Shown here piece after piece: positions 1 through 10,155 of a DNA stretch of 10,157 nucleotides (positions within the stretch are counted from its first letter, which is position 1; every line of letters starts with the position of its first letter). The stretch is from an uncultured Deinococcales bacterium (GTDB lineage: Bacteria; Deinococcota; Deinococci; Deinococcales; JAAFIG01). A model generated the notes under the pieces. That model was not told the origin of the DNA, ran no database searches, and was given only the letters and a program-made list of their open reading frames with translations. The stretch spans positions 1 through 10,157 of the forward strand of contig CAXTKV010000190.1 of NCBI GenBank assembly GCA_964244895.1, in the 5' to 3' direction. The translations under genes and the position numbers were made by a program.

Positions 1-360
1 CGAACCTACCACAGCGTGTTATCAGCAGAGATCGCCCGTCAGACCGAGGAACTCGATCAGAGTCAGCGGGCGAAAAACGGTCGAACCCTGATCACCGTCG
101 GAGCGGCACTGGCAGCCGTGGCGAGCCAGGCCGCCGCGCAGAACACCTTCGGCGCGGCGACCCAGAAGATGGTCGCCGAAGGCAACTCACTGCAGACGAA
201 CATTGTGACGGTCCTCGGCGTTTTTGGTGGGATCTGCTTCTTGGTCGGAATAGGAATGTTTATGGCTCGCAATCGCAACGCCGTGGGGGTGATGGCAGCA
301 GCCGTGGTGTCGCTGTTGCTGATTCCGGTCACAAAAGCCTTGCCCGCGCTGGCCAGGTGA
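1..360 (+). CDS. VirB2/TrbC-like conjugative pilin precursor (probably 5'-partial)
   Basis: Frame is open from base 1 (RTYHS precedes the GTG at 16), so the start may lie upstream. Charged leader, then signal-like TLITVGAALAAVASQAAA|Q (Q at 139), giving a predicted 73-aa mature peptide with two hydrophobic segments joined by a basic loop (ARNRN). Lies two genes upstream of VirB4. Confidence 0.7.
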   Translation, partial: RTYHSVLSAEIARQTEELDQSQRAKNGRTLITVGAALAAVASQAAAQNTFGAATQKMVAEGNSLQTNIVTVLGVFGGICFLVGIGMFMARNRNAVGVMAAAVVSLLLIPVTKALPALAR

Positions 361-371
361 AGGGGTAGATC

Positions 372-728
372 GTGGAGCATGACCTCCACAGGACGCTGAA
401 GGTCACGGGCCGCGTGACCTTCAGAAACATCGGCGGCATGGAGATCGGCGTGGGTATCTTCGCTGGCGTGATCACCCTGTTGTTGTTTGGTTCACTCGGG
501 GTTGTCGTCCAGTACGCGCTCGCGGTCTTCAACACCGTCGTGTTCATCATCGTCGGCGTCATGCTTCGTCGAGCGCTCCCCGGCCCGAGCGGGGCGTACC
601 TGATGGAGTGGATGATGTCGCACCGCCTGTACAAACCCGCCCCGGACCCGGTTCACGCGCCGCAAATCGTGGATCAATCGCTGTTGCAGGAAGCCAGGGA
701 GGAGGTTCATGCTCGCGGCTTTAGCTGA
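372..728 (+). CDS. VirB3-like small inner-membrane T4SS protein (118 aa)
   Basis: GTG start preceded by AGGGG at 361-365. Two adjacent hydrophobic segments followed by a polar tail. Sits between the pilin-like gene and VirB4, overlapping the VirB4 start by 20 bp. Family call rests on topology and synteny. Confidence 0.6.
   Translation: MEHDLHRTLKVTGRVTFRNIGGMEIGVGIFAGVITLLLFGSLGVVVQYALAVFNTVVFIIVGVMLRRALPGPSGAYLMEWMMSHRLYKPAPDPVHAPQIVDQSLLQEAREEVHARGFS
697..705 (+). promoter_or_regulatory. Shine-Dalgarno site for virB4
   Basis: GGGAGGAGG just upstream of ATG 709. Confidence 0.75.
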
Positions 729-3264
729 CAACGAAATCGCGAAAGCACTGCCGTATTTTGAGCTGTTCGGCAACGGCATCGTCACGCTGATTGACGGTCG
801 CGCCGTCGTTGGTGTCGCTTTTGACTTACCAGCCGCGCCGACGCTCGGGGCGGGGCAGCTCGAGCGGATCGAGCGGGGTCTTCGAGAGATCGCCTCGAGC
901 CTCGTTCCGAGCAAGGGCGTCCTGAACTGGCACGTGACCCTGCGCAAAAGCACCAGTGAGGTGATTGATCGCTTCACTGAGAGTCTGGAGACCGACCACG
1001 AGGTCACGGCTCGCTGGTCTCGGGCCGTGACGCGCAGACTCACGGGGCAGATCGAGGCGGGCTCGATCTTGACCTCCCACAACTTCGTGACGATCAGTTT
1101 CGGTCAGACGCGCAAGGGTGTGGCTGCGCCCAACCTGGTCACGGTCGCGCTTTCTAAAGTGCTGAAGGGACTGGCGCAACGCACCCACGTCGCGCGGACC
1201 GTCGAAGACTTCAGCGAAAACATCCAGGCCAGGGGCCTCGAGATTCAACTCGGCCTGGTCCGAAATCTTCGGCGCTTGGGCTTCAATCCTCGAGCGATGA
1301 ACGGCGACGATGTGTTCCGGGCGATTCGCGCGTACACGACCCCAGGGCGACGCGAATTGCTCGAGACCTACGTGCGTCCGGAGCCGCACTTTTACACCGA
1401 AGATCAGTACCGCCGCGATCCGAAGATCGGCGTCTGGACCTTGCGGGCGCAGTGCGTCGAACAGGAGGTCTTCACCGCCCCGTGGGATCACCTGCGAATC
1501 GGCCATCACTACGTTCAGTGCCTGGCGATGACGGGCTATCCCGAAACCTCAAAGATGAACACGATGGGTCCCATGCTGAACGCCCTGGCGGAGATGCCGG
1601 GCGAGGTCCATTTCGTGATGCAGCTCCACCACCCCGACCGCGAGATGATGGAGACGAAGCTCAATCAGACCTTCCAGAACCTCGACAGCCTGGTCGCAGA
1701 CATGCCCATCGTGGACCCGGCGATGCGCGAGCGCCGCGACAACATGGACGTCCTCTTGAAGCGTGCGGAGCGCAACAACGAGGGGTTTTTCGAGGTCATG
1801 GGCCTCCTGATCCTGGCCGACACCGACCGCGAAGTCCTGAAACACCGGGTGGCGGCGTTTCGTCGCAGCGCCGGAGAGGTGCCGGGCCGACCGTTCACTC
1901 TGATGCGCACCGGGATCTTGCAGCCGTTTCTCGAGGCCATGCCGTTTTCGGGCCGCCGGATGACCAGCGGCGTCACCTTTCTCGAGTCGCAAGCCGTGGC
2001 TCAACTGCCGCTCGGCGGAGCCTGGAACTCCGGTCACGCCCCGCAACTGCTGTTCAGGACGCGCAAGGGCACGCTGCTGCCCCTGGCGCTTCGCGGTGCG
2101 CACGTTCGGGCGTACAACATGGTCATCATCGGCGAGACGGGCGGCGGGAAGAGCTACACCGCGCAGGTGATCATGTCGTTCCTGGCGCGCTACGAGCGCA
2201 CACGATTGAACGTGATTGATGTCGGCGGTTCGTACCACGCGCTGTTCAGTCTGTTTGCGCCGCGCAGCGTCGCCGTCGAATTGACGACGCGCGGCGACAT
2301 GCGCTTCAACCCGTTCGACCTCGCCCCCGGCATGTCGCAGCCCGACGACGAGAAGATGAGTTTTCTGCTCTCCTTGTTCATGCTGTGTTTCAGAGACCTG
2401 CCCGGTGACCGCCTTGGACGCGCCCGAGCTTTGCTCGAGGAAGCCATCAAGCGCACCTACAACGCCGCCACCAACACCAAGGACGGCGTTGAGGTCGTGA
2501 TCATGAAGGATTGCACCGTCAGCCAGCTCCGGCGAGCGCTGGTCAACCTGCGTCAGGTGGGCAAGAGCAAGATGCTGGACGGGGACTACGAGCTGGCGAG
2601 TTCGATGGCGATGATGCTCGAGAGCTGGTGCGGGGAGAAAACCATCGGGCGGCTGATCGATGGCGAGAGCACCGTGCAGCTCGGCGAGGCGACGATGGTT
2701 TACTGGGACCTCTCCAAAATCGGGATCAAGAATCTAGAACTCGCTTCGGTCGCGGTGTCCGTCGTCAACGATTACATCCAGACGCGCCTGCGCCCCGAGG
2801 TCGAGACGCACACCTTCCTCGACGACATTGACGAGGTGATCGAAAAGCTCCCTGCGATGGCCGACCTGATCAACGACGGCTATCGCCGTGGACGCAAGCT
2901 GAATGCCTCGTGCACCCTGGTCACCCAGTTGTGGGAAGACCTGCCGGAGAAGGTCAAGGAACTCTCGTTCTTCTACTGGATCATCTCGGCCAACAAGAGC
3001 GCACCGGACATCGCGGCCCAGACGAAATTGCCCCCGGAGGCGGCGGCGATCATGCGCCAGTTGGGGCACGGCGAGGTGTTCTTGATCGTCCGCGAGAACG
3101 ACGGCACCAAAGCGGAAACGATATGTATCGAAGCCACCCCCGAGCAGCACTGGGCGATCACCACCAATCCGAATGAGGTGACCCTGCGAAAGCAAACCCT
3201 GGAGCGCTTCAATGGTGACTGGAACAAGACGGTGCAGTGGTTGGCCGCGACCGCGCCAATCTAG
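709..3264 (+). CDS. virB4: VirB4-family T4SS ATPase (851 aa)
   Basis: Walker A NMVIIGETGGGKS (GETGGGKS at 2131-2154), VIDVGGSY, FNPFD, Walker B-like HTFLDDIDE (2809-2835) and GRKLNASCTLVTQ. Length and motif order are typical of VirB4/TraC/TrbE. Confidence 0.92.
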   Translation: MLAALADNEIAKALPYFELFGNGIVTLIDGRAVVGVAFDLPAAPTLGAGQLERIERGLREIASSLVPSKGVLNWHVTLRKSTSEVIDRFTESLETDHEVTARWSRAVTRRLTGQIEAGSILTSHNFVTISFGQTRKGVAAPNLVTVALSKVLKGLAQRTHVARTVEDFSENIQARGLEIQLGLVRNLRRLGFNPRAMNGDDVFRAIRAYTTPGRRELLETYVRPEPHFYTEDQYRRDPKIGVWTLRAQCVEQEVFTAPWDHLRIGHHYVQCLAMTGYPETSKMNTMGPMLNALAEMPGEVHFVMQLHHPDREMMETKLNQTFQNLDSLVADMPIVDPAMRERRDNMDVLLKRAERNNEGFFEVMGLLILADTDREVLKHRVAAFRRSAGEVPGRPFTLMRTGILQPFLEAMPFSGRRMTSGVTFLESQAVAQLPLGGAWNSGHAPQLLFRTRKGTLLPLALRGAHVRAYNMVIIGETGGGKSYTAQVIMSFLARYERTRLNVIDVGGSYHALFSLFAPRSVAVELTTRGDMRFNPFDLAPGMSQPDDEKMSFLLSLFMLCFRDLPGDRLGRARALLEEAIKRTYNAATNTKDGVEVVIMKDCTVSQLRRALVNLRQVGKSKMLDGDYELASSMAMMLESWCGEKTIGRLIDGESTVQLGEATMVYWDLSKIGIKNLELASVAVSVVNDYIQTRLRPEVETHTFLDDIDEVIEKLPAMADLINDGYRRGRKLNASCTLVTQLWEDLPEKVKELSFFYWIISANKSAPDIAAQTKLPPEAAAIMRQLGHGEVFLIVRENDGTKAETICIEATPEQHWAITTNPNEVTLRKQTLERFNGDWNKTVQWLAATAPI

Positions 3265-3268
3265 GAGG
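3263..3268 (+). promoter_or_regulatory. Shine-Dalgarno site overlapping the virB4 stop codon
   Basis: TAGGAGG: the TAG stop (3262-3264) runs into AGGAGG, upstream of ATG 3273. Confidence 0.75.
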
Positions 3269-3272
3269 CCCC

Positions 3273-4361
3273 ATGAAAAAAGTCTTTGCAGTGCTGGTGG
3301 TGCTCTGGGTGAACGGCGCGATGGCCCAGGTGCCGGACGTGGTTCCGAGTCTGCCGGGCGGCGTGCCGAACGCCATCAACACTGGGCGAAGCGTGGCCCA
3401 ACCCGTCACCGACCCATTGAGCATCATGCAGCCGATTCAGCAGTTCGCCTCGAGCATGTGCGGCAACGTTCAGAACCTGAACTTCGGCTCGCTCGAGTTC
3501 ATCTGCACGGGGTCCTCGATGCTGAACACCGTGGGTGACATGATCACCAACTTTCAGTCCGACATGGCCTCGTTCACCGGAGAACTCGGCGGCGACATGC
3601 TCTCGGATGTCGTCAACACCCTGGCGAGCGGACTCGGGGCGGATGCGCTCAATGAGCACATGCAGAGCATGCGCAACGACCTCGCCAGCACGCCAGGACG
3701 GATCAAGGCGCAACTGCGGACCTCGGCCAGCATGCTGGTGCGCGACAGCGTCGGTCAACTCTTCGCCGGAAAAAAGGGCATGAGGTTGGGCGACGCGGCC
3801 AACCTGGCGACCTGGGCCAGAATCGTCAATCCGGAGCTGGCCGTCCAGGAGGTGACGAACGAGGTCAAGAAGGGCAAGACCCTGCTGGCGGCGGGTGACG
3901 CCCTGGCCGCCAGCACCTCGAGCGCCGACATCGCCACCCGGATGGCCGAGGCCGACGCCGGACAGAACCTCGCCAAGACGGTCAACGGTGATCCGTTGCG
4001 CGCCAACCTGGGCAAGGCCGAATTGCTCCGGCAGAACGTGGGGCGGGCCGTGAGTACGCGGGCCGCGATCCAGTCGCTGACCGAGGGGATCGCGGATGTG
4101 ATGTCCATTCAGGCGAGCGCCGCGATGAACAACGAAGCCTACGCCAAGGCGCAGGCGATGCAGGCGAGCTACACGACGGCGCAGCTCGCGACCCTGGTCA
4201 ATCTGTACGCCCAGAGCAAAGCCGACGAGTTGGAGGAGCAGAGCGGGGCCGTCGAGCAGGCGATGGCGGAAGTCTGGCAAGAGGTGCAGATGGCGACCGC
4301 CACCGGGAACCAGATGCGCCGTGCGCTCGACAAGAAATCTACCGACACCCTGAACTGGTGA
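3273..4361 (+). CDS. Secreted alpha-helical protein, putative VirB5/TrbJ-like minor pilin or tip protein (362 aa)
   Basis: Start reassigned from 3237 to ATG 3273 (AGGAGG upstream). Signal peptide MKKVFAVLVVLWVNGAMA|Q. Ala/Gln-rich helical C-terminal half. Occupies the VirB5 position between VirB4 and the VirB6-like gene. CDS is secure, family call is by synteny. Confidence 0.55.
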   Translation: MKKVFAVLVVLWVNGAMAQVPDVVPSLPGGVPNAINTGRSVAQPVTDPLSIMQPIQQFASSMCGNVQNLNFGSLEFICTGSSMLNTVGDMITNFQSDMASFTGELGGDMLSDVVNTLASGLGADALNEHMQSMRNDLASTPGRIKAQLRTSASMLVRDSVGQLFAGKKGMRLGDAANLATWARIVNPELAVQEVTNEVKKGKTLLAAGDALAASTSSADIATRMAEADAGQNLAKTVNGDPLRANLGKAELLRQNVGRAVSTRAAIQSLTEGIADVMSIQASAAMNNEAYAKAQAMQASYTTAQLATLVNLYAQSKADELEEQSGAVEQAMAEVWQEVQMATATGNQMRRALDKKSTDTLNW

Positions 4362-4364
4362 ATC

Positions 4365-5450
4365 GTGGATGACCTCTTTCGCATTTTTCAACCGATCGCG
4401 GTGCTCAACGTCTGGGCCGCGAACATCGGCAACATGGGCATCAAAAACCTGATCGTGGCCACCAGCGTCGTCCTCGTCACCATCGGTTTCCTGCTCGGCC
4501 TCTTCGGAACGGCCACGCTTCGACTGCCGTTCTGGACTCTGCTCGGTCGGACGCTCGTGATCTCTGTCCTGATCGGCGCGTCGCTTCCGATTGGATCGTT
4601 CACCAAAGGCTTCTGGGCCGTGCTGTACAACGCGGGGCTGGCGACCAGCACGAAATCACTCGAGACCGCCGTCGAGAAATCCGGCGCGTTCGGCGCGACC
4701 CTCGGGCTGATCGGCATGACGCTGACCGCAGGCAAAATGGTCGGCAGCGGAGCCTTGAAGGCGAAAAACCTGAAGGAGGCTGCGAGCGCGGCGGCGGCCA
4801 ACGGCAAGGACGTGCTGAAATGGGCCTCGGCCCTGAATCAGTTGATCGCCCCGTTCTGGTTCATGTACCTGCTCGTGGTCGTGATCTCGGGGTTGACGAT
4901 CTACCTGGGGAGCCTGTTCTTGCCCCTGTGCCTGGCCTTTTGCATGTTTCAGACCATCGGCGGCATGAGCTGGATCTCGGGCTGGATTCGCACGATGGTC
5001 AACGCGATGGCGGTGATGCTGATTCTTCCGGTCGTCTTCGCGTTCTCCTTGAAAATGGGCTGGGAAATTCCGATGAACGTCGTCAACAAGGGACTCGATC
5101 AAAAAGTCCAGGCCATCGCGTCCACCATGGCGCAAGTCGGTCAGCAGGAGGAGGCCATCGTCAAGGCGATCACCAGTCTCGGCACGGACGTGACCGCCAG
5201 CGTCGAGGCGGTCAAAGCCACGCTCGGCGGGGGCCTGATCAACAACGGTCTCAAACTGGTCGGCCTGACCATCGAGACCCTGACGATGTTCGTGGTCGGC
5301 GTCTTCGCGGTGATCGTGGGCCTCTTCATCGGCGGATTCCTGCTGATGAAAACCGACCAGTTCGCGGGCAAAACGCTCGGTGGAGCCGTGTCCGGGCTGG
5401 CCATGAGCACCTTGCGAGCGCCCAGGTGGCCGAGCGGTGCGCGATCATGA
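4365..5450 (+). CDS. Polytopic inner-membrane protein, VirB6/TrbL-like (361 aa)
   Basis: GTG 3 bp after the upstream stop. About 5-7 hydrophobic segments. The segment LTIYLGSLFLPLCLAFCMFQTIGGMSWISGWIRTMV resembles the VirB6/TrbL core (P..la......W). Gly-rich end. Synteny fits. Confidence 0.7.
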   Translation: MDDLFRIFQPIAVLNVWAANIGNMGIKNLIVATSVVLVTIGFLLGLFGTATLRLPFWTLLGRTLVISVLIGASLPIGSFTKGFWAVLYNAGLATSTKSLETAVEKSGAFGATLGLIGMTLTAGKMVGSGALKAKNLKEAASAAAANGKDVLKWASALNQLIAPFWFMYLLVVVISGLTIYLGSLFLPLCLAFCMFQTIGGMSWISGWIRTMVNAMAVMLILPVVFAFSLKMGWEIPMNVVNKGLDQKVQAIASTMAQVGQQEEAIVKAITSLGTDVTASVEAVKATLGGGLINNGLKLVGLTIETLTMFVVGVFAVIVGLFIGGFLLMKTDQFAGKTLGGAVSGLAMSTLRAPRWPSGARS

Positions 5451-7828
5451 ACATCCAGAGCCGACAGACCACCGTGCTGATCGGCCTCGTCGTGGGCTTG
5501 CTGATCTGGGGCGGCTGGGCTGGCTTCGAGGCGTACCGCCTCCTTGAGCAGCACACGAGGCGACCAGAAACGCGAACCATCCACGCCCAGATGGAAGCCG
5601 CTGGCAACAGCGGGCCGTACGCGTGCGCCTTCGATGGGCGTTGCCGCGCATCGTACGCGAGCGCCCTCGAGCGCTTCCCTCTGCACGTCGCCTTCGGCGC
5701 GGGGTTCGTCTTGCTCGGTCTACTGGCCGGTCACGTGCTCGGCACCGACACGAAGATCCGCCCCCCGGCGGGAGCGAGCTTTGCCCTGGAGGAGCAGTTG
5801 ACGCGTTTCCTGGTCGGGTCCCCAAAGCATCCACCGAAGCGCGGCTACCTCGGGGTGTTGCCGTCGGGACGGGTGCTGAACTGGCCCGGAGGTCTGGTCA
5901 ACATGGCGATCACGGGCAATCCCGGAGCGGGCAAGAGTTCGCGCTTTCTCAAGCCGCTGATCGTCAAATCGGCCTTCGATGGCTGTACCAGCATCATCTG
6001 GGACATGAAGCCGGGCGATTTCGAGGGCGGCTTCGAGGACGTGCTGGGGCTGTACCAGGCCCTCAAGCTGCCCACCTATGCCATCAAGCCGATGCACGAG
6101 GATAGCGTCAGTATCGATGTGCTCGAAGGGGTCAGCACCTACGCCGAGGCGATGGCGCTGTGCGAGATGCTGATCCCCGAGGCCGACAAGGAGGAGGTCG
6201 AGTTTTACCGCGAAGCCGAGCGCTCGATCCTGGCCAACCTGATCGTTGACGCCATTCGCCGGGGCCAACACCTCGAGTACGTCTACTGGCGCGCGAAATG
6301 GGGGGTCAAGGAGTTCAGGAAGTACGTGATGAGCGACCCTGAGATGCTCAATCGGCTGGCGACCACGCTGGATCGCACCAGCGAGCGACTCTCCGGGCTG
6401 CTGGATCACATCGCCAACAAGCTCGAGATCTTCTGCATGCCTTCGGTCGCCCACGCGTTGTGCGGGCAAAGCGCAGAGCGCCTCGATCTGCACAGCGCCT
6501 TCCGACAGCAGAGCGTGATCTACGTCGGCATCCCCAAGGAAATCGCCAAAGGTCCGCGCGGCGCGTACATGGCCCGGTTGATCTGGCGCATCATCCACCA
6601 GGCGGCGGACGAGACGATGGCCGTGACCAAACGCAAACGCCTCGAAACCAAGGTGATCCAGGTGATTGACGAGTTTGCCAACTGGCCGACCTTTCACGAC
6701 ATCGAATCCCGAATCTCCAATATGCGCAGCGCAGGGATGTGCTACATGCTCGCCTTTCAGAACCAGTCGCAAGGCTACGTCAAGTACGGCGAGTACAAGT
6801 TCAATTCGACGCTCGACGCGTGTCAGTACATGTTGTACTTCCCGCATCTACTGTCCGACACAGACAAATTCAAGCTCGAGCGGATCTTGGGCGAAACCGT
6901 GGTGATTGACGACAGCGTAGGGGTCGGCAGCGGTCCGCTCGGCTCGAGCAACTCGCGGCAATATCGCCACGTCAAGGTGCCGCTGCTCGCGGCCAGCGAC
7001 ATGTCCGTGTTCCCCGATGGCTGGGCGATTGTCGTCGGTCCGGAGACCCGACCGATCAAGGTCAGCTTGCCGCACCTCGACCACCCCGCGAATCCCTACC
7101 GCGAGGTCTACACCGACCTGTGCGAATTGGCACAGCGCCACGGCGATTCGAGGATGGTCGTTCAAGGCCGCGCCCAGCCCGAACCGGCGTCGGTCAACCG
7201 AGCCGTTCAGATCCGCGAGCCGCAGCACGCCCACGCTCGAACGCCGGGCGGGATCCCGCCGACCGCCTCGAGTCGCCTCCGCGCGGACGAACGCGATGAA
7301 CTGTTGTTACGAAGGTTCATCATTCACGCCTGCGAATCCGGGCGGGCCGAGCTGGCCACCCTCGAGAACCAGATCACGCAGGTCAAGCTCACGCACGTGG
7401 GTCCCGTGGACGCTCGCCTCGAGCACCTGCACTGGGTCACGCAGCGGGATGAGGCGGTGATCGTGACCCGCATCGCGCTCGAGCATCTGGAGGAGCACTA
7501 TCGGCGCAAACTTCGGCAACTCGCTCGAGTGACCGAGGTGCGTCGTTGGCTCGAAGATCACGCCGAATACGTCCTTGGACACGCGAAATTCGCGGGCGGT
7601 GAGATCAAAGGCCAGCTTGAAGCGGATGGGCGGTTGCTGCTCAACCTCGAGGACGCCCTCGCGCTCTGCGGCAAGGGGGCGACGAAACTGAAGGAAATCA
7701 TCGCGCTCGAGATCGAGGGTGAAGCCCGCCAGTTTCACCCGTTCATGATGACGGTCAATGTGGATGACCTCAAGAGCAACCTCAACACCAGCAAAAAGCG
7801 TGTCTACCGCAGCGAGGTAAGGGCATGA
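5447..7828 (+). CDS. virD4: VirD4/TraG-family type IV coupling protein with C-terminal extension (793 aa)
   Basis: Start reassigned from 4820 to ATG 5447 (ATGA overlap with the upstream stop). Two N-terminal TM segments, Walker A GNPGAGKS (5915-5938), IIWDMKPG, Walker B VIDEFAN (from 6662), MRSAGMCYMLAFQNQSQ and PLLAASDMSVFP..AIV..RPI, all characteristic of VirD4-type coupling proteins. Confidence 0.92.
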   Translation: MNIQSRQTTVLIGLVVGLLIWGGWAGFEAYRLLEQHTRRPETRTIHAQMEAAGNSGPYACAFDGRCRASYASALERFPLHVAFGAGFVLLGLLAGHVLGTDTKIRPPAGASFALEEQLTRFLVGSPKHPPKRGYLGVLPSGRVLNWPGGLVNMAITGNPGAGKSSRFLKPLIVKSAFDGCTSIIWDMKPGDFEGGFEDVLGLYQALKLPTYAIKPMHEDSVSIDVLEGVSTYAEAMALCEMLIPEADKEEVEFYREAERSILANLIVDAIRRGQHLEYVYWRAKWGVKEFRKYVMSDPEMLNRLATTLDRTSERLSGLLDHIANKLEIFCMPSVAHALCGQSAERLDLHSAFRQQSVIYVGIPKEIAKGPRGAYMARLIWRIIHQAADETMAVTKRKRLETKVIQVIDEFANWPTFHDIESRISNMRSAGMCYMLAFQNQSQGYVKYGEYKFNSTLDACQYMLYFPHLLSDTDKFKLERILGETVVIDDSVGVGSGPLGSSNSRQYRHVKVPLLAASDMSVFPDGWAIVVGPETRPIKVSLPHLDHPANPYREVYTDLCELAQRHGDSRMVVQGRAQPEPASVNRAVQIREPQHAHARTPGGIPPTASSRLRADERDELLLRRFIIHACESGRAELATLENQITQVKLTHVGPVDARLEHLHWVTQRDEAVIVTRIALEHLEEHYRRKLRQLARVTEVRRWLEDHAEYVLGHAKFAGGEIKGQLEADGRLLLNLEDALALCGKGATKLKEIIALEIEGEARQFHPFMMTVNVDDLKSNLNTSKKRVYRSEVRA

Positions 7829-8379
7829 GGGGGATGCTGGTCGGGTTGCTGCTGGTGGGCGGCTTCGCTCGAGCCGATGCATTTCGGATTGACACCGACC
7901 AGCAAGTCGCCGCCATCATCAACAGTGCCCGACGCGACGTGGTGTTGATGATTCCCGATCTGCGCAGCAGTGAGGTCTACAACGCATTGAGAACTGTATT
8001 GATCAACAATCGGCTGAAGGTGCGCGTGCTGACCGATGCCTCAACCGTGACCAACGGCGCGAACCGGATGGCCGCACTCAGCCTGCTCGGACTCGAGATC
8101 AGGAACCCTCCGGGCGAACTCAAACAAACCGCGCTTGCCTTTGACGTGCAGGTGCGCGTGCTCTCGGGCATTCGAGAGCGCTTTGCGCTGATTGACGGTC
8201 ATGCGTTGATGCGCGGCCCGGTGGTCGGCGAGCCGCCCACCATCGGCCAGGGTCGAACGTGGCTGATCACCGAAGCAGGCGATGTCGAGCGGTTTCGAGC
8301 GCTCTTCAATACCAACTGGGGTCGCGCCAAGCCGTGGGTCTACCGCATTTCTCGCAGTGTCATCAGGAGGTCAAAATGA
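7825..8379 (+). CDS. Secreted single-domain phospholipase D/Nuc-fold protein with degenerate HKD motif (184 aa)
   Basis: ATGA overlap with the virD4 stop, GAGGT at 7814-7818. Short signal-like N-terminus. PLD scaffold IINSARRDVVLM..VYNAL..KVRVLTD..RFALIDG..FRALFNTNW. The HxKxxxxD position reads RERFALID (8173-8196) and GSxN reads GPVV. Confidence 0.75.
   Translation: MRGMLVGLLLVGGFARADAFRIDTDQQVAAIINSARRDVVLMIPDLRSSEVYNALRTVLINNRLKVRVLTDASTVTNGANRMAALSLLGLEIRNPPGELKQTALAFDVQVRVLSGIRERFALIDGHALMRGPVVGEPPTIGQGRTWLITEAGDVERFRALFNTNWGRAKPWVYRISRSVIRRSK
8365..8370 (+). promoter_or_regulatory. Shine-Dalgarno site
   Basis: AGGAGG 5 nt upstream of ATG 8376. Confidence 0.75.
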
Positions 8380-8924
8380 AGTTCGCCGCCGTCGCATTGT
8401 CATTGGTGCTCACCGTGCCGCTCGCGGTGTTCGCGCAAAACCCTCCAGGGTCGAATGCCAGTGCGCCCACTGCACCGTTGGGGGCGCAACCGATCACCGA
8501 TCTTCGCCGCGCCATCGAAGTGGTGGAACAGGCCAGGCGCTCGGTGATCGTCGTCGGTTCGAGCATCACCAGCCGCGAGTTCGCCAGCACGCTGATTGAC
8601 AAGGCGCGAGCGCTGCGTTCGGCGCAGAATCCGACCCCGATCAAGATCATCGTCGAACTGAGCAGGCAAAACCAGACGAACGAGCTGCTGATCAGGTTGT
8701 GGCGCTCGGCGGGGGTTGGGGTGCGCGGACAACGCGGTGTCCAATTCGCCGTCACCTACGTGGACGCCCTCAACACGGTGATCTCGAGCGAGATGCTCGG
8801 GTTGAAGCGACGGCGAGACGTTCCCGAAATGATCTACCTGAACATGCCGGGAATGGCGGCGCAGAACTCCGCCGTGATCGAGCGGTATTTCGGGGCATAC
8901 CCAGAACTCTGGAGGGCGCGATGA
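8376..8924 (+). CDS. Secreted protein, probable second and more degenerate PLD/Nuc-fold protein (182 aa)
   Basis: Start reassigned from 8259 to ATG 8376 (ATGA overlap plus AGGAGG). Signal peptide MKFAAVALSLVLTVPLAVFA|Q, Pro-rich linker, then VVEQARRSVIVV..ITSREFASTL..IKIIVE..AGVGVR. The HKD position reads QFAVTYVD (8742-8765). Confidence 0.62.
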   Translation: MKFAAVALSLVLTVPLAVFAQNPPGSNASAPTAPLGAQPITDLRRAIEVVEQARRSVIVVGSSITSREFASTLIDKARALRSAQNPTPIKIIVELSRQNQTNELLIRLWRSAGVGVRGQRGVQFAVTYVDALNTVISSEMLGLKRRRDVPEMIYLNMPGMAAQNSAVIERYFGAYPELWRAR

Positions 8925-9208
8925 AACTCGAAAAACGCATGATCGTCTACCTGGTTCTGGCGAGTGTGGTCGGTCTGTTTGCGACTTTCAACAAGGAGAA
9001 TGGCAGCATCTACATGGGCTTCATGATCCTTTCGTTCACGGTCATCACCGTGAGCGTTCGGTCAACTTACCTTCTGGTGCGTGACATCGCTCGCAAGTTT
9101 GAGGGCGATGCGAAGCACACGCTGCAACGCTCCACCAACTCGCAGCCGAAACGAGCGGGTTCAGAGGCTCACATTGGGGGAAATCATGGGCCTGCACCAG
9201 TCCGGTGA
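8921..9208 (+). CDS. Small hypothetical membrane protein with two TM segments (95 aa)
   Basis: Start reassigned from 8699 to ATG 8921 (ATGA overlap, GGAGG at 8911-8915). Two hydrophobic segments followed by a basic, polar tail. Confidence 0.6.
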   Translation: MKLEKRMIVYLVLASVVGLFATFNKENGSIYMGFMILSFTVITVSVRSTYLLVRDIARKFEGDAKHTLQRSTNSQPKRAGSEAHIGGNHGPAPVR

Positions 9209-9494
9209 CCCGATCACCGAAGCGGCAAACGCAACCAACCAGGTGATCCAAGACTTGCTCGGTCAATCTCAAGTCGTGGCTGAGCAAATCACCCAGCATC
9301 GCTACTGGAGTACGCTGCAAGACCGCACACATGGAGCGGCCAAAGCCAACCTGATCACAAATCTCGAGGCCCTGGGCGAGCGCGGCTGCGCTCTTTCGGA
9401 CGTGAAGGTGTGCCGCTTGGTGCTCATCAACCTCGAGTTCATGCTCGTCAATTTGAAGCTGTATGAAACGCCCAACGACATCGAAATCTGTTGA
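9186..9494 (+). CDS. Hypothetical small helical protein (about 102 aa, start uncertain)
   Basis: ORF 9081-9494. ATG 9186 is preceded by GGGGGA and overlaps the upstream gene by 23 bp. ATG 9108 is an alternative. Protein-like composition with amphipathic helices. No family recognised. Confidence 0.5.
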   Translation: MGLHQSGDPITEAANATNQVIQDLLGQSQVVAEQITQHRYWSTLQDRTHGAAKANLITNLEALGERGCALSDVKVCRLVLINLEFMLVNLKLYETPNDIEIC

Positions 9495-9642: not shown

Positions 9643-10155
9643 TCACAACCAGCGGAACGCCGAAGGAACACCACCGCGTCCAGGGCAGGTCAGCGCCTGA
9701 GCCTTCGCGTCGTACCCGATGGGCTGATCCCGGTACGAACACCTCGGGTGACGCTTCAAGTACGACGGTACAAGCGCCGAGAGTGTCACAGGCAGGGCTT
9801 TGTGCTCGAGCTTATACGCTCGAATTCCCAATTCCACCGCGAGAAACGCCCCAGCCACGCGTGCTGAGCAATCGATGTCAACCATAGTGCCAAGCTGAGC
9901 ATTCGCGGCGGCCCTCAGCACGACCCCGAGGCGATTTGAGCGGTTCGCAACTCCGGCGGTCTGGGCATCCCAGGTCGTCTTGAGGCCGTCGGAAGCATAG
10001 TCGCAGTCAGCCAGACGCACACTCGAGACTCGCGCGTCCTCGAGCAACCATTCGCGCGTCTCGCCAGGGTTCCAGCCCGGTGTTGACCACGCCGACTGGA
10101 ACAGCGTACTGACCGTACCGAAGTCAGGTCCGCTCCCGCTGACGGTGCGAAAAAA
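9643..10155 (-). CDS. 5'-truncated hypothetical protein with pseudopilin G (GspG)-like C-terminal motif
   Basis: Manual translation shows the frame stays open past 10047 to the window end (..FFRTVSGSGPDFGTVSTLFQSAWSTPGWNPGETREWLLEDAR..). C-terminus LGIRAYKLEHKALPVTLSALVPSYLKRHP matches the 'al..Y....g..P..L..Lvp.Yl...P' pattern. TGA at 9643-9645. Confidence 0.6.
   Translation of the reverse strand, partial: FFRTVSGSGPDFGTVSTLFQSAWSTPGWNPGETREWLLEDARVSSVRLADCDYASDGLKTTWDAQTAGVANRSNRLGVVLRAAANAQLGTMVDIDCSARVAGAFLAVELGIRAYKLEHKALPVTLSALVPSYLKRHPRCSYRDQPIGYDAKAQALTCPGRGGVPSAFRWL

Follow-up and report, generated by a model that had tools for sequence, protein, structure and literature searches.

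The virB2-to-virD4 operon of contig C190

The window, that is, the whole stretch of DNA analysed here (10,157 nucleotides), is the complete contig C190 of a 5.1-Mb genome, 91% complete, from an uncultured Deinococcales bacterium (the genome is called G000 below, the contig G000:C190). Its positions 1-9494 are packed with ten co-directional open reading frames (ORFs), all of them open and separated by intergenic gaps of -23 to +11 bp. We consider it likely that the window carries the virB2-to-virD4 operon of a type IV secretion system (T4SS) specific to the Deinococcota, which has its predicted outer-membrane core, a relaxase-like gene and usually an ATPase encoded outside the operon and would conjugate its own plasmid or integrated element. 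The ORFs are listed below. The leave-out hidden Markov models (HMMs) were built without G000 proteins, and their E-values are single-comparison values; they link the ORFs at the B2, B3, B5 and B6 positions, as well as X1 and X2, to same-position genes in relatives.

1..360, + strand: VirB2-like pilin precursor, 5′-truncated; 2 hydrophobic segments; Pfam TrbC E 0.037; leave-out HMM E 2.7e-6
372..728, + strand: VirB3-position protein with 2 transmembrane (TM) segments, 118 amino acids (aa); overlaps the virB4 start; leave-out HMM E 6e-13
709..3264, + strand: VirB4/TraC-type ATPase, 851 aa; Walker A at residue 475; Pfam TraC_F_IV and P-loop_TraG; TIGR02746 111 bits (cut-off 567)
3273..4361, + strand: VirB5-position secreted protein, 362 aa; leave-out HMM E 2e-34
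4365..5450, + strand: VirB6-like polytopic protein, 361 aa; 5 hydrophobic segments; leave-out HMM E 9e-30
5447..7828, + strand: VirD4 coupling protein, 793 aa; 2 N-terminal TM segments; Walker A at residue 157; TrwB_AAD_bind, TraG-D_C and T4SS-DNA_transf; NF045973 E 3e-25
7825..8379, + strand: X1, secreted phospholipase D (PLD)-like protein without HxK; Pfam PLDc_2 E 0.004; leave-out HMM E 3e-19
8376..8924, + strand: X2, a more divergent protein of the same PLD-like family as X1; leave-out HMM E 4e-8
8921..9208, + strand: X3, small 2-TM protein by hydropathy; HMM E 0.014 only
9186..9494, + strand: X4, 102-aa ORF; no family match; membership of the system uncertain

On their Pfam and NCBIfam matches and Walker motifs, the identities of VirB4 and VirD4 can be taken as firm. 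The gene order virB2-virB6 followed by virD4, proposed in the first-pass annotation, was found again across the Deinococcota, together with the ATGA at 5447-5450 in which the virB6-like stop and the virD4 start overlap; of the individual names, VirB5 was not confirmed and VirB6 gained weak support. Relatives' B2 proteins exceed the Pfam cut-off for TrbC/VirB2; the link of the window's copy is weak, and the HMM search of the whole genome, with its threshold of E<=0.01, did not recover this ORF. The protein encoded at 372..728 has no relevant Pfam family, and its size, topology and position suggest VirB3. The family at the B5 position (alignment A9) is conserved between virB4 and virB6, with an HMM seeded partly by gene position. 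Pfam gave nothing for this family (0 relevant of 17), PDB sequences gave no match, hhalign to TrwJ returned 2%, and a Thermus-type homologue had no usable match in Atlas; position, together with a signal peptide, makes the 3273..4361 product a putative VirB5/TrbJ protein. In the VirB6-like family, one of 19 members matches TrbL/VirB6 (E 1.5e-4), hhalign to R388 TrwI gave 0.7%, and topology and position fit, so that the VirB6 identity is weakly supported. The window's VirB6-like protein (361 aa) is shorter than 18 aligned homologues. Proteins of this family are sometimes greatly extended, reaching 1517 aa on plasmid pDFI3 (L027:21097-25650) and about 1020 aa in genome G028 (alignment A7), and one of the 19 contains an M23 peptidase domain (E 7e-24).

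The closest named relatives of the window's VirB4 are found on plasmids of Thermus, Allomeiothermus, Oceanithermus and Deinococcus, at 23-27% identity, which by itself suggests a host within the Deinococcota. As read around the match, four of these plasmids share the order TrbC/VirB2, small gene, VirB4, two hypothetical genes and VirD4, and a fifth, pDFI3, is rearranged, its pilin genes lying at another place on the element. A search with the window's VirB4 for related loci in genome and metagenome contigs gave no match. Conservation of the neighbourhood among homologues, which had been suggested as a check, was borne out: virD4 lies within -4 to 271 bp of the virB6-like gene in 21 of 25 loci, the four exceptions being two insertions and two start-codon artefacts of ORF calling. 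Because virD4 is so close, there is no room for virB7-B11 between it and the virB6-like gene. At one locus (L060:17186-19568, G024:C15) a PLD-like gene directly follows the VirB6-like gene with no virD4 between, and tandem pairs of nearly identical VirB2 pilin genes occur at L139:11463-12174 (G103) and L027:35271-35976.

Downstream of virD4, relatives often encode one or two secreted PLD-like proteins, an SLT enzyme (lytic transglycosylase) and a SpoIIIAA-like ATPase of the PilT/VirB11 superfamily, whose profile matches PilT, DotB and FlaI. The X1 family commonly stands directly after virD4 (alignment A3). Its proposed part in a channel across the envelope gained nothing from the analysis: the HxK(x4)D motif is found in none of 17 PLD-like proteins, and no result obtained points to a channel role. 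Small TM genes, candidate homologues at most, occupy the X3 position in relatives, and X4 had neither a Pfam or NCBIfam match nor a homologue among the fetched loci or in the genome. At L024:28694-30091 and other Thermus-type loci, two genes come after the ATPase gene, one for a coiled-coil protein with an SLH domain and one for a lipoprotein-like product; a possible role of these proteins is to attach the machine to the cell wall. On two plasmids, TnpB elements lie within or beside the transfer region (L026:24021-25298; L028:20904-22163). In the window itself, a 170-codon open frame runs on the minus strand at 9643-10155 toward the contig end; it matched no family, neither the genome nor the fetched loci contain a homologue, and it may not be a gene.

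Predicted core-complex and relaxase-like genes outside the operon

The first-pass annotation had described a streamlined machine with no VirB7-B11 and no core complex. Position 1 of the window falls within virB2, the contig edge cutting the 5′ end of this gene; since the contig starts there, the upstream DNA is simply missing. In relatives it contains genes with VirB10 and VirB9 folds. Clustering identified, in most loci, a gene of 500-800 codons divergent from virB2 and not recognised by Pfam. In its product, a single TM segment and a long Pro-rich linker separate a cytoplasmic N-domain from a conserved C-domain. The C-domain of the copy on contig C244 of G000 was folded with 149 homologues (150 sequences; predicted local distance difference test score, pLDDT, 81), yielding a C-terminal barrel with a helical hairpin. 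At E<=0.001 this model had 11 Foldseek matches, every one of them, with probability 1.0, to a structure of the outer-membrane core of a T4SS (Dot/Icm, Xanthomonas, F, R388, Cag). In VIA-align, five core chains scored Z 13.3 (root-mean-square deviation, rmsd, 3.3; 107 aligned) to 10.4, against 5.0 for the first unrelated structure. These 11 top matches being all of the VirB10 family, the gene beside virB2 is predicted to encode a VirB10 fold.

A second unannotated family comprises proteins with a signal peptide and two beta domains joined by a linker; the C244 copy was modelled (pLDDT 80). The top nine Foldseek matches were core-complex entries (F, Xanthomonas, Dot/Icm, R388; E 5.6e-8 to 8e-6), and the N-domain, residues 1-98, aligned with an F-plasmid chain at VIA Z 12.2 (rmsd 2.2, 92 aligned). 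We predict from this model that the nearby secreted protein has a VirB9/TraK fold. Sequence comparison alone fared less well. The Pfam models for VirB10, VirB9 and VirB8 matched nothing in G000, although the control for the VirB8 model gave no match either; the profile of the VirB10-like family retrieved nothing from PDB sequences, and that of the VirB9-like family picked out TrwF (E 0.23) and CagX (E 0.59) only weakly, amid low-complexity noise. The Pfam misses of VirB9 and VirB10 are false negatives caused by divergence. Were they taken at face value, they would favour a machine lacking a VirB9/VirB10 core and crossing the envelope through the secreted proteins encoded after virD4 or a host channel. 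That possibility, already largely refuted, now seems extremely improbable, given that genes of both folds are present in G000 and co-occur with VirB4 across the phylum. Core homologues, which the first-pass annotation had named as the finding that would overturn it, thus lie beside virB2 (the divergent VirB10-fold gene) and nearby on the element (the VirB9/TraK-fold gene). The one element of the streamlined machine that survives is the failure to identify VirB8 or VirB7; the VirB9- and VirB10-fold genes and a PilT/DotB-type ATPase are present in relatives.

Neither VirB8 nor VirB7 emerged from the Pfam scans or as a conserved cluster, which is no proof of absence, the same library missing the VirB9 and VirB10 of this system. 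PF04335 (VirB8) matched R388 and pTi, had no match on pNEB1569 or pTA69, and reached only E 0.04 on pDFI3. A further secreted protein, of 340-630 aa, is usually encoded after virB9 (26 ORFs in 59 stretches). This post-virB9 protein (L051:2472-3689 on G000:C244, and homologues) has cysteines and a C-terminal W-x-SVPEG motif. It gave no match in Pfam or PDB, and a likeness to TraU, considered as a candidate, found no support in these searches. In Atlas it led to fungal DUF7872 clusters at 0.93, which is a lead only.

In most loci read, virB10 is usually followed by a Replic_Relax (PF13814) gene of 165-200 codons; on C244 the match is above cut-off. A PD..E[YF]D nuclease motif was present in 21 of 25 copies, and PF13814 has been equated with MobC relaxases in the passages on this family in PMC5357655. 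The gene is therefore a putative MOBC-like relaxase gene, of the PD-ExD, restriction-nuclease type. SSB, ArdC-like, toprim and ParB genes, typical of conjugative elements, accompany the system. These features bear on whether the machine moves its own DNA. It might instead mainly secrete proteins, for example in interbacterial competition, or release DNA for competence-dependent uptake, in the manner of transjugation. Secreted PLD-like proteins are co-encoded, some loci (G170, G103, G024) have no relaxase beside virB10, and the DNA transfer known in Thermus, as described in the relevant parts of PMC5365140, needs recipient competence and neither T4SS nor relaxase. However, most loci read have the Replic_Relax gene after virB10, genes of the conjugative-element type are present, and the PLD-like proteins are without the catalytic motif; we therefore regard secretion or release as an improbable main function.

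Three divergent copies of the system occur in G000 (C190; C113+C133; C279), to which contigs C244, C32, C87, C221, C297 and C324 also relate. The VirB4s of the two further loci, on C113 and C279, are 23-27% identical to the window's. Contig C133 carries virB10, virB2 and virB9, and its 55-bp end overlap with C113 indicates one complete paralogous locus. Genes for the ATPase and for the post-virB9 protein each occur three times in the genome, and relaxase-like genes twice, on separate contigs. Contig C244 opens shortly before the 5′ end of a virB10-like gene, after which come the relaxase-like gene, the post-virB9 protein, virB9, ParB and a toprim fragment. Its tetranucleotide distance to the window ranks third among 291 contigs, and none of 726 length-matched pieces of other contigs is as close. 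Close relatives of the window's VirB4 (88%, 86%) and of the C244 VirB9 (87%, 77-79%) come from the same sources, with longest contigs of identical size (53,743; 28,247). C244 is likely to be the upstream half of the window, the join being indirect.

Distribution and proposed mechanism

The phylum was surveyed in 301 Deinococcota genomes, with a VirB4 threshold of E<=1e-30; the genomes are related, hence not independent, and may overlap with the named plasmids. VirB4 was detected in 78 genomes and the VirB10-like domain also in 78, with 76 having both; the VirB9-like family was detected in 68, 61 of them among the 78 with VirB4. Counting a split gene in G007 once, a VirB10-like gene lay <=20 kb from VirB4 at 90 of 101 VirB4 places. 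The 11 other places include the three fragmented contigs of G000 and one pair 242 kb apart on a single contig. By these matches, about one in four of the sampled Deinococcus-Thermus genomes has the system. Among 72,556 plasmids, the VirB10-like domain was found in 27, all from Deinococcota, and PLSDB types 26 of these 27 as "non-mobilizable", some being relics (pVV8) and others carrying the whole set. A wider search for the domain gave 475 clusters at 50% identity; ten were looked up, and both of those with an organism name were Deinococcota.

Complete plasmids carry the full set of genes, and some other copies are decayed. In G007 (L037:1749-4351, G007:C58), virB4 lies in two ORFs of 299 and 580 codons of open frame. 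On pVV8 of T. thermophilus HB8 (L180, NC_017767.1:53751-72266), a 305-aa VirB10-like remnant, a gene at the relaxase position and toprim stand among insertion sequence elements; there is no virB2-virD4 operon beside the remnant, and pVV8 is absent from the nine Thermus records that match VirB4. It was accordingly rejected as an intact plasmid of the system. Nineteen Thermus plasmids match the VirB10-like domain and only nine match VirB4, so that decayed, possibly mobilisable derivatives may be common.

A working scheme can be drawn from the observed gene content, order, co-occurrence and ATPase motifs and from the predicted VirB10 and VirB9 folds, the pilus, the role of the ATPase, nicking and transfer being extrapolated from these. 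The small MOBC-like relaxase, encoded right after virB10, would nick the origin of transfer, and VirD4 would pass the substrate to an inner-membrane machine of VirB4, VirB3 and VirB6. VirB10 and VirB9 would span the periplasm and the outer membrane, the envelope probably being crossed in the ordinary way. A pilus may be built from VirB2 with the VirB5-position protein, the SpoIIIAA-like ATPase (PilT/DotB/VirB11 superfamily) may substitute for VirB11, and the SLT enzyme would open the cell wall. The post-virB9 protein and the motif-less PLD-like proteins are candidates for class-specific structural or mating-pair parts.

Several observations weigh against this account. VirB8 is essential in MPF-T (MPF, mating-pair formation) and present in most classes (PMC4027160), and it was not found in this system. 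The VirB5 assignment is unproven, the C-terminal domain of the VirB9-like model best matches generic Ig/ApaG-like folds, and 17 of the 78 VirB4 genomes have no VirB9-like match. The relaxase-like protein is small, its activity being predicted from sequence, and some copies of the system, as seen above, have decayed. In the literature covered, which excludes most subscription journals, we found neither a phylum-wide description nor a transfer experiment. Other points concern the window's own copy. It includes neither a PilT/VirB11-type ATPase gene nor an SLT gene; the ATPase copies of G000 on C87, C221 and C297 rank 156, 111 and 293 of 326 in composition relative to the window, and therefore no ATPase contig is tied to its element. 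No contig-end overlap joins C190 to C244 or to any other contig, and the equal contig sizes of the relatives are taken from records, not from a read of those contigs.

These latter points could mean that the window's copy is decayed or incomplete, or that C244 belongs to another of the three systems in G000, as could the long VirB4 branch, the short VirB6, the decay seen in other genomes and the presence of three VirB4 copies against only two VirB10-like matches in G000. On the other side, all ten closely spaced ORFs are open, a VirB4 of 851 aa with 86-88% identity to the window's is retained in three relatives, C244 goes with C190 and C32 with C279 by composition, and C133 is joined to C113 by its overlap. 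Decay or misassignment consequently appears quite unlikely, and we retain the interpretation of the window as part of a conjugation system. The system is widespread, and standard profiles miss it. If the plasmids that carry it conjugate, classical conjugation would make a major and so far overlooked contribution to gene flow among thermophilic and radiation-resistant bacteria. The system would also show how the T4SS core adapts to the envelope of this phylum, and whether VirB8 is dispensable. The question is directly testable in genetically tractable Thermus strains.

Class placement and comparison with known systems

The suggestion that the operon belongs to a poorly described class of conjugation machine held up well. 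The window's VirB4 scored under a fifth of the cut-off of the F, T, FATA-type and G models (TIGR00929, 58 of 643 bits; TIGR02746, 111 of 567; TIGR03744, 20 of 521). Two quick trees of the VirB4 ATPase domain were built, with 11-12 references, MPF-G absent, and branch support from the Shimodaira-Hasegawa approximate likelihood ratio test (SH-aLRT) only; the first tree was made without pCF10, the second without R64 TraU and eight Deinococcota rows. A branch with SH-aLRT support of 93 and 95 separated the Deinococcota VirB4s, 23 and 15 in the respective trees, from the T, F, FA, FATA and B references. In the first tree R64 TraU joined the window's long branch. The VirB4 of the Nostoc MPF-C system, itself on a long branch, stood inside the Deinococcota group in one tree and with T in the other; its position is unstable, given that the two placements differ.

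Membership of MPF-T is contradicted by a VirB4 outside the T clade in both trees and below the cut-off, and by the absence of virB7-B11 after virB6. The same two VirB4 results apply to MPF-F, and MPF-FA/FATA does not agree with the presence of both an outer-membrane core and a VirB2 pilin. Judging from these sequence comparisons, a separate class outside the well-profiled MPF classes is probable. The system could instead be a very divergent branch of MPF-C, MPF-F or MPF-G, a matter of classification only. In favour of this are the best NCBIfam match, to the F-type TraC, the place of the Nostoc protein among the Deinococcota sequences in one tree, and the small, SH-aLRT-only sampling without MPF-G. 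Against it are the low class-model scores, the exclusion of F, T, FA, FATA and B in both trees, the grouping of Nostoc with T in the other tree, and a gene set and layout that differ. We hold such a branch to be rather unlikely.

A more specific proposal, for which we see about even chances, is that of a ninth conjugation class, specific to the Deinococcota and present in roughly a quarter of their genomes. It would dispense with VirB8 and VirB7. The genes for its VirB10 and for a minimal MOBC-like relaxase would stand back-to-back with the pilin operon, the part of VirB11 would fall to a SpoIIIAA-like ATPase, and two components of the envelope would be specific to the class, the catalytically dead PLD-like proteins and the post-virB9 protein. 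Such a class would be a source of thermostable T4SS components and would explain the surveys that report no conjugative plasmids here. In the parts of the large plasmid survey of Coluzzi 2022 (PMC9185392) that deal with the phylum, none of 67 Deinococcus-Thermus plasmids is conjugative, and transjugation is suggested as the reason; if these plasmids conjugate, the lack is one of detection. Neither Deinococcus nor Thermus is mentioned in the main texts of three surveys by Guglielmini (2011, 2013, 2014) or of a 2025 paper on the T4SS of Patescibacteria (supplements outside the scope).

The likeness to MPF-T systems (Agrobacterium VirB, R388 Trw, pKM101 Tra) lies in the virB2-B3-B4-(B5)-B6 order, the VirB2-type pilin, the VirB9/VirB10 core fold and the SLT enzyme. 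The system departs from them in its divergent, upstream virB10, its separate virB9, a virD4 that forms part of the operon and a SpoIIIAA/PilT-like ATPase, and in that neither VirB8 nor VirB7 was found. With MPF-F (F, R27) the system shares its best VirB4 profile, TIGR02746, a VirB9 N-domain nearest to F TraK among the fold matches, and a long VirB10/TraB-like linker; it differs in the VirB2-type pilin and the traffic ATPase. The F-specific TraN, TraH, TraU, TraW and TraF gave no Pfam match among the proteins scanned (35 of the 90 of pTA69 and 35 of the 69 of pNEB1569) or for the post-virB9 protein, and divergence may hide them. With MPF-FA/FATA (pCW3, pCF10, pGO1) it shares the compact B3-B4-B6-D4 neighbourhood. 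The FATA protein TrsE of pGO1 scored 157 bits on the Deinococcota VirB4 profile, and MOBC-type relaxases occur with FATA systems, according to the part of PMC5357655 concerned. Unlike these monoderm classes, which are without both (PMC4027160), the present system has the VirB9/VirB10 core and a pilin.

The nearest precedent is the "Thermus conjugation system" that Brumm et al. 2015 (PMC4605624) predicted on pTA69, with orthologues on two T. thermophilus plasmids; the passages of that paper on the system contain no experiment, phylum-wide survey or class placement. Its virB1, B2, B4, B6, B9 (pTA69-30, 288 aa) and VirD4 agree with our assignments. Its VirB10 (pTA69-31, a 304-aa membrane protein), VirB11 (-34), VirB3 (-27) and relaxase (-45) differ from ours, namely the VirB10-fold family at -23 (554 aa), the relaxase-like gene at -24, the traffic ATPase at -11 and the VirB3-position gene at -21; by locus-tag count, pTA69-45 is the gene that RefSeq calls a tyrosine recombinase. 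Transjugation in Thermus (TdtA/ICETh1), as described in the relevant parts of PMC5365140 (Blesa 2017) and PMC7767461, also transfers DNA by cell contact in the same phylum. That process operates without T4SS or relaxase and depends on the competence of the recipient, whereas the system described here has genes for VirB4 and VirD4, for a predicted core and for a relaxase-like protein.

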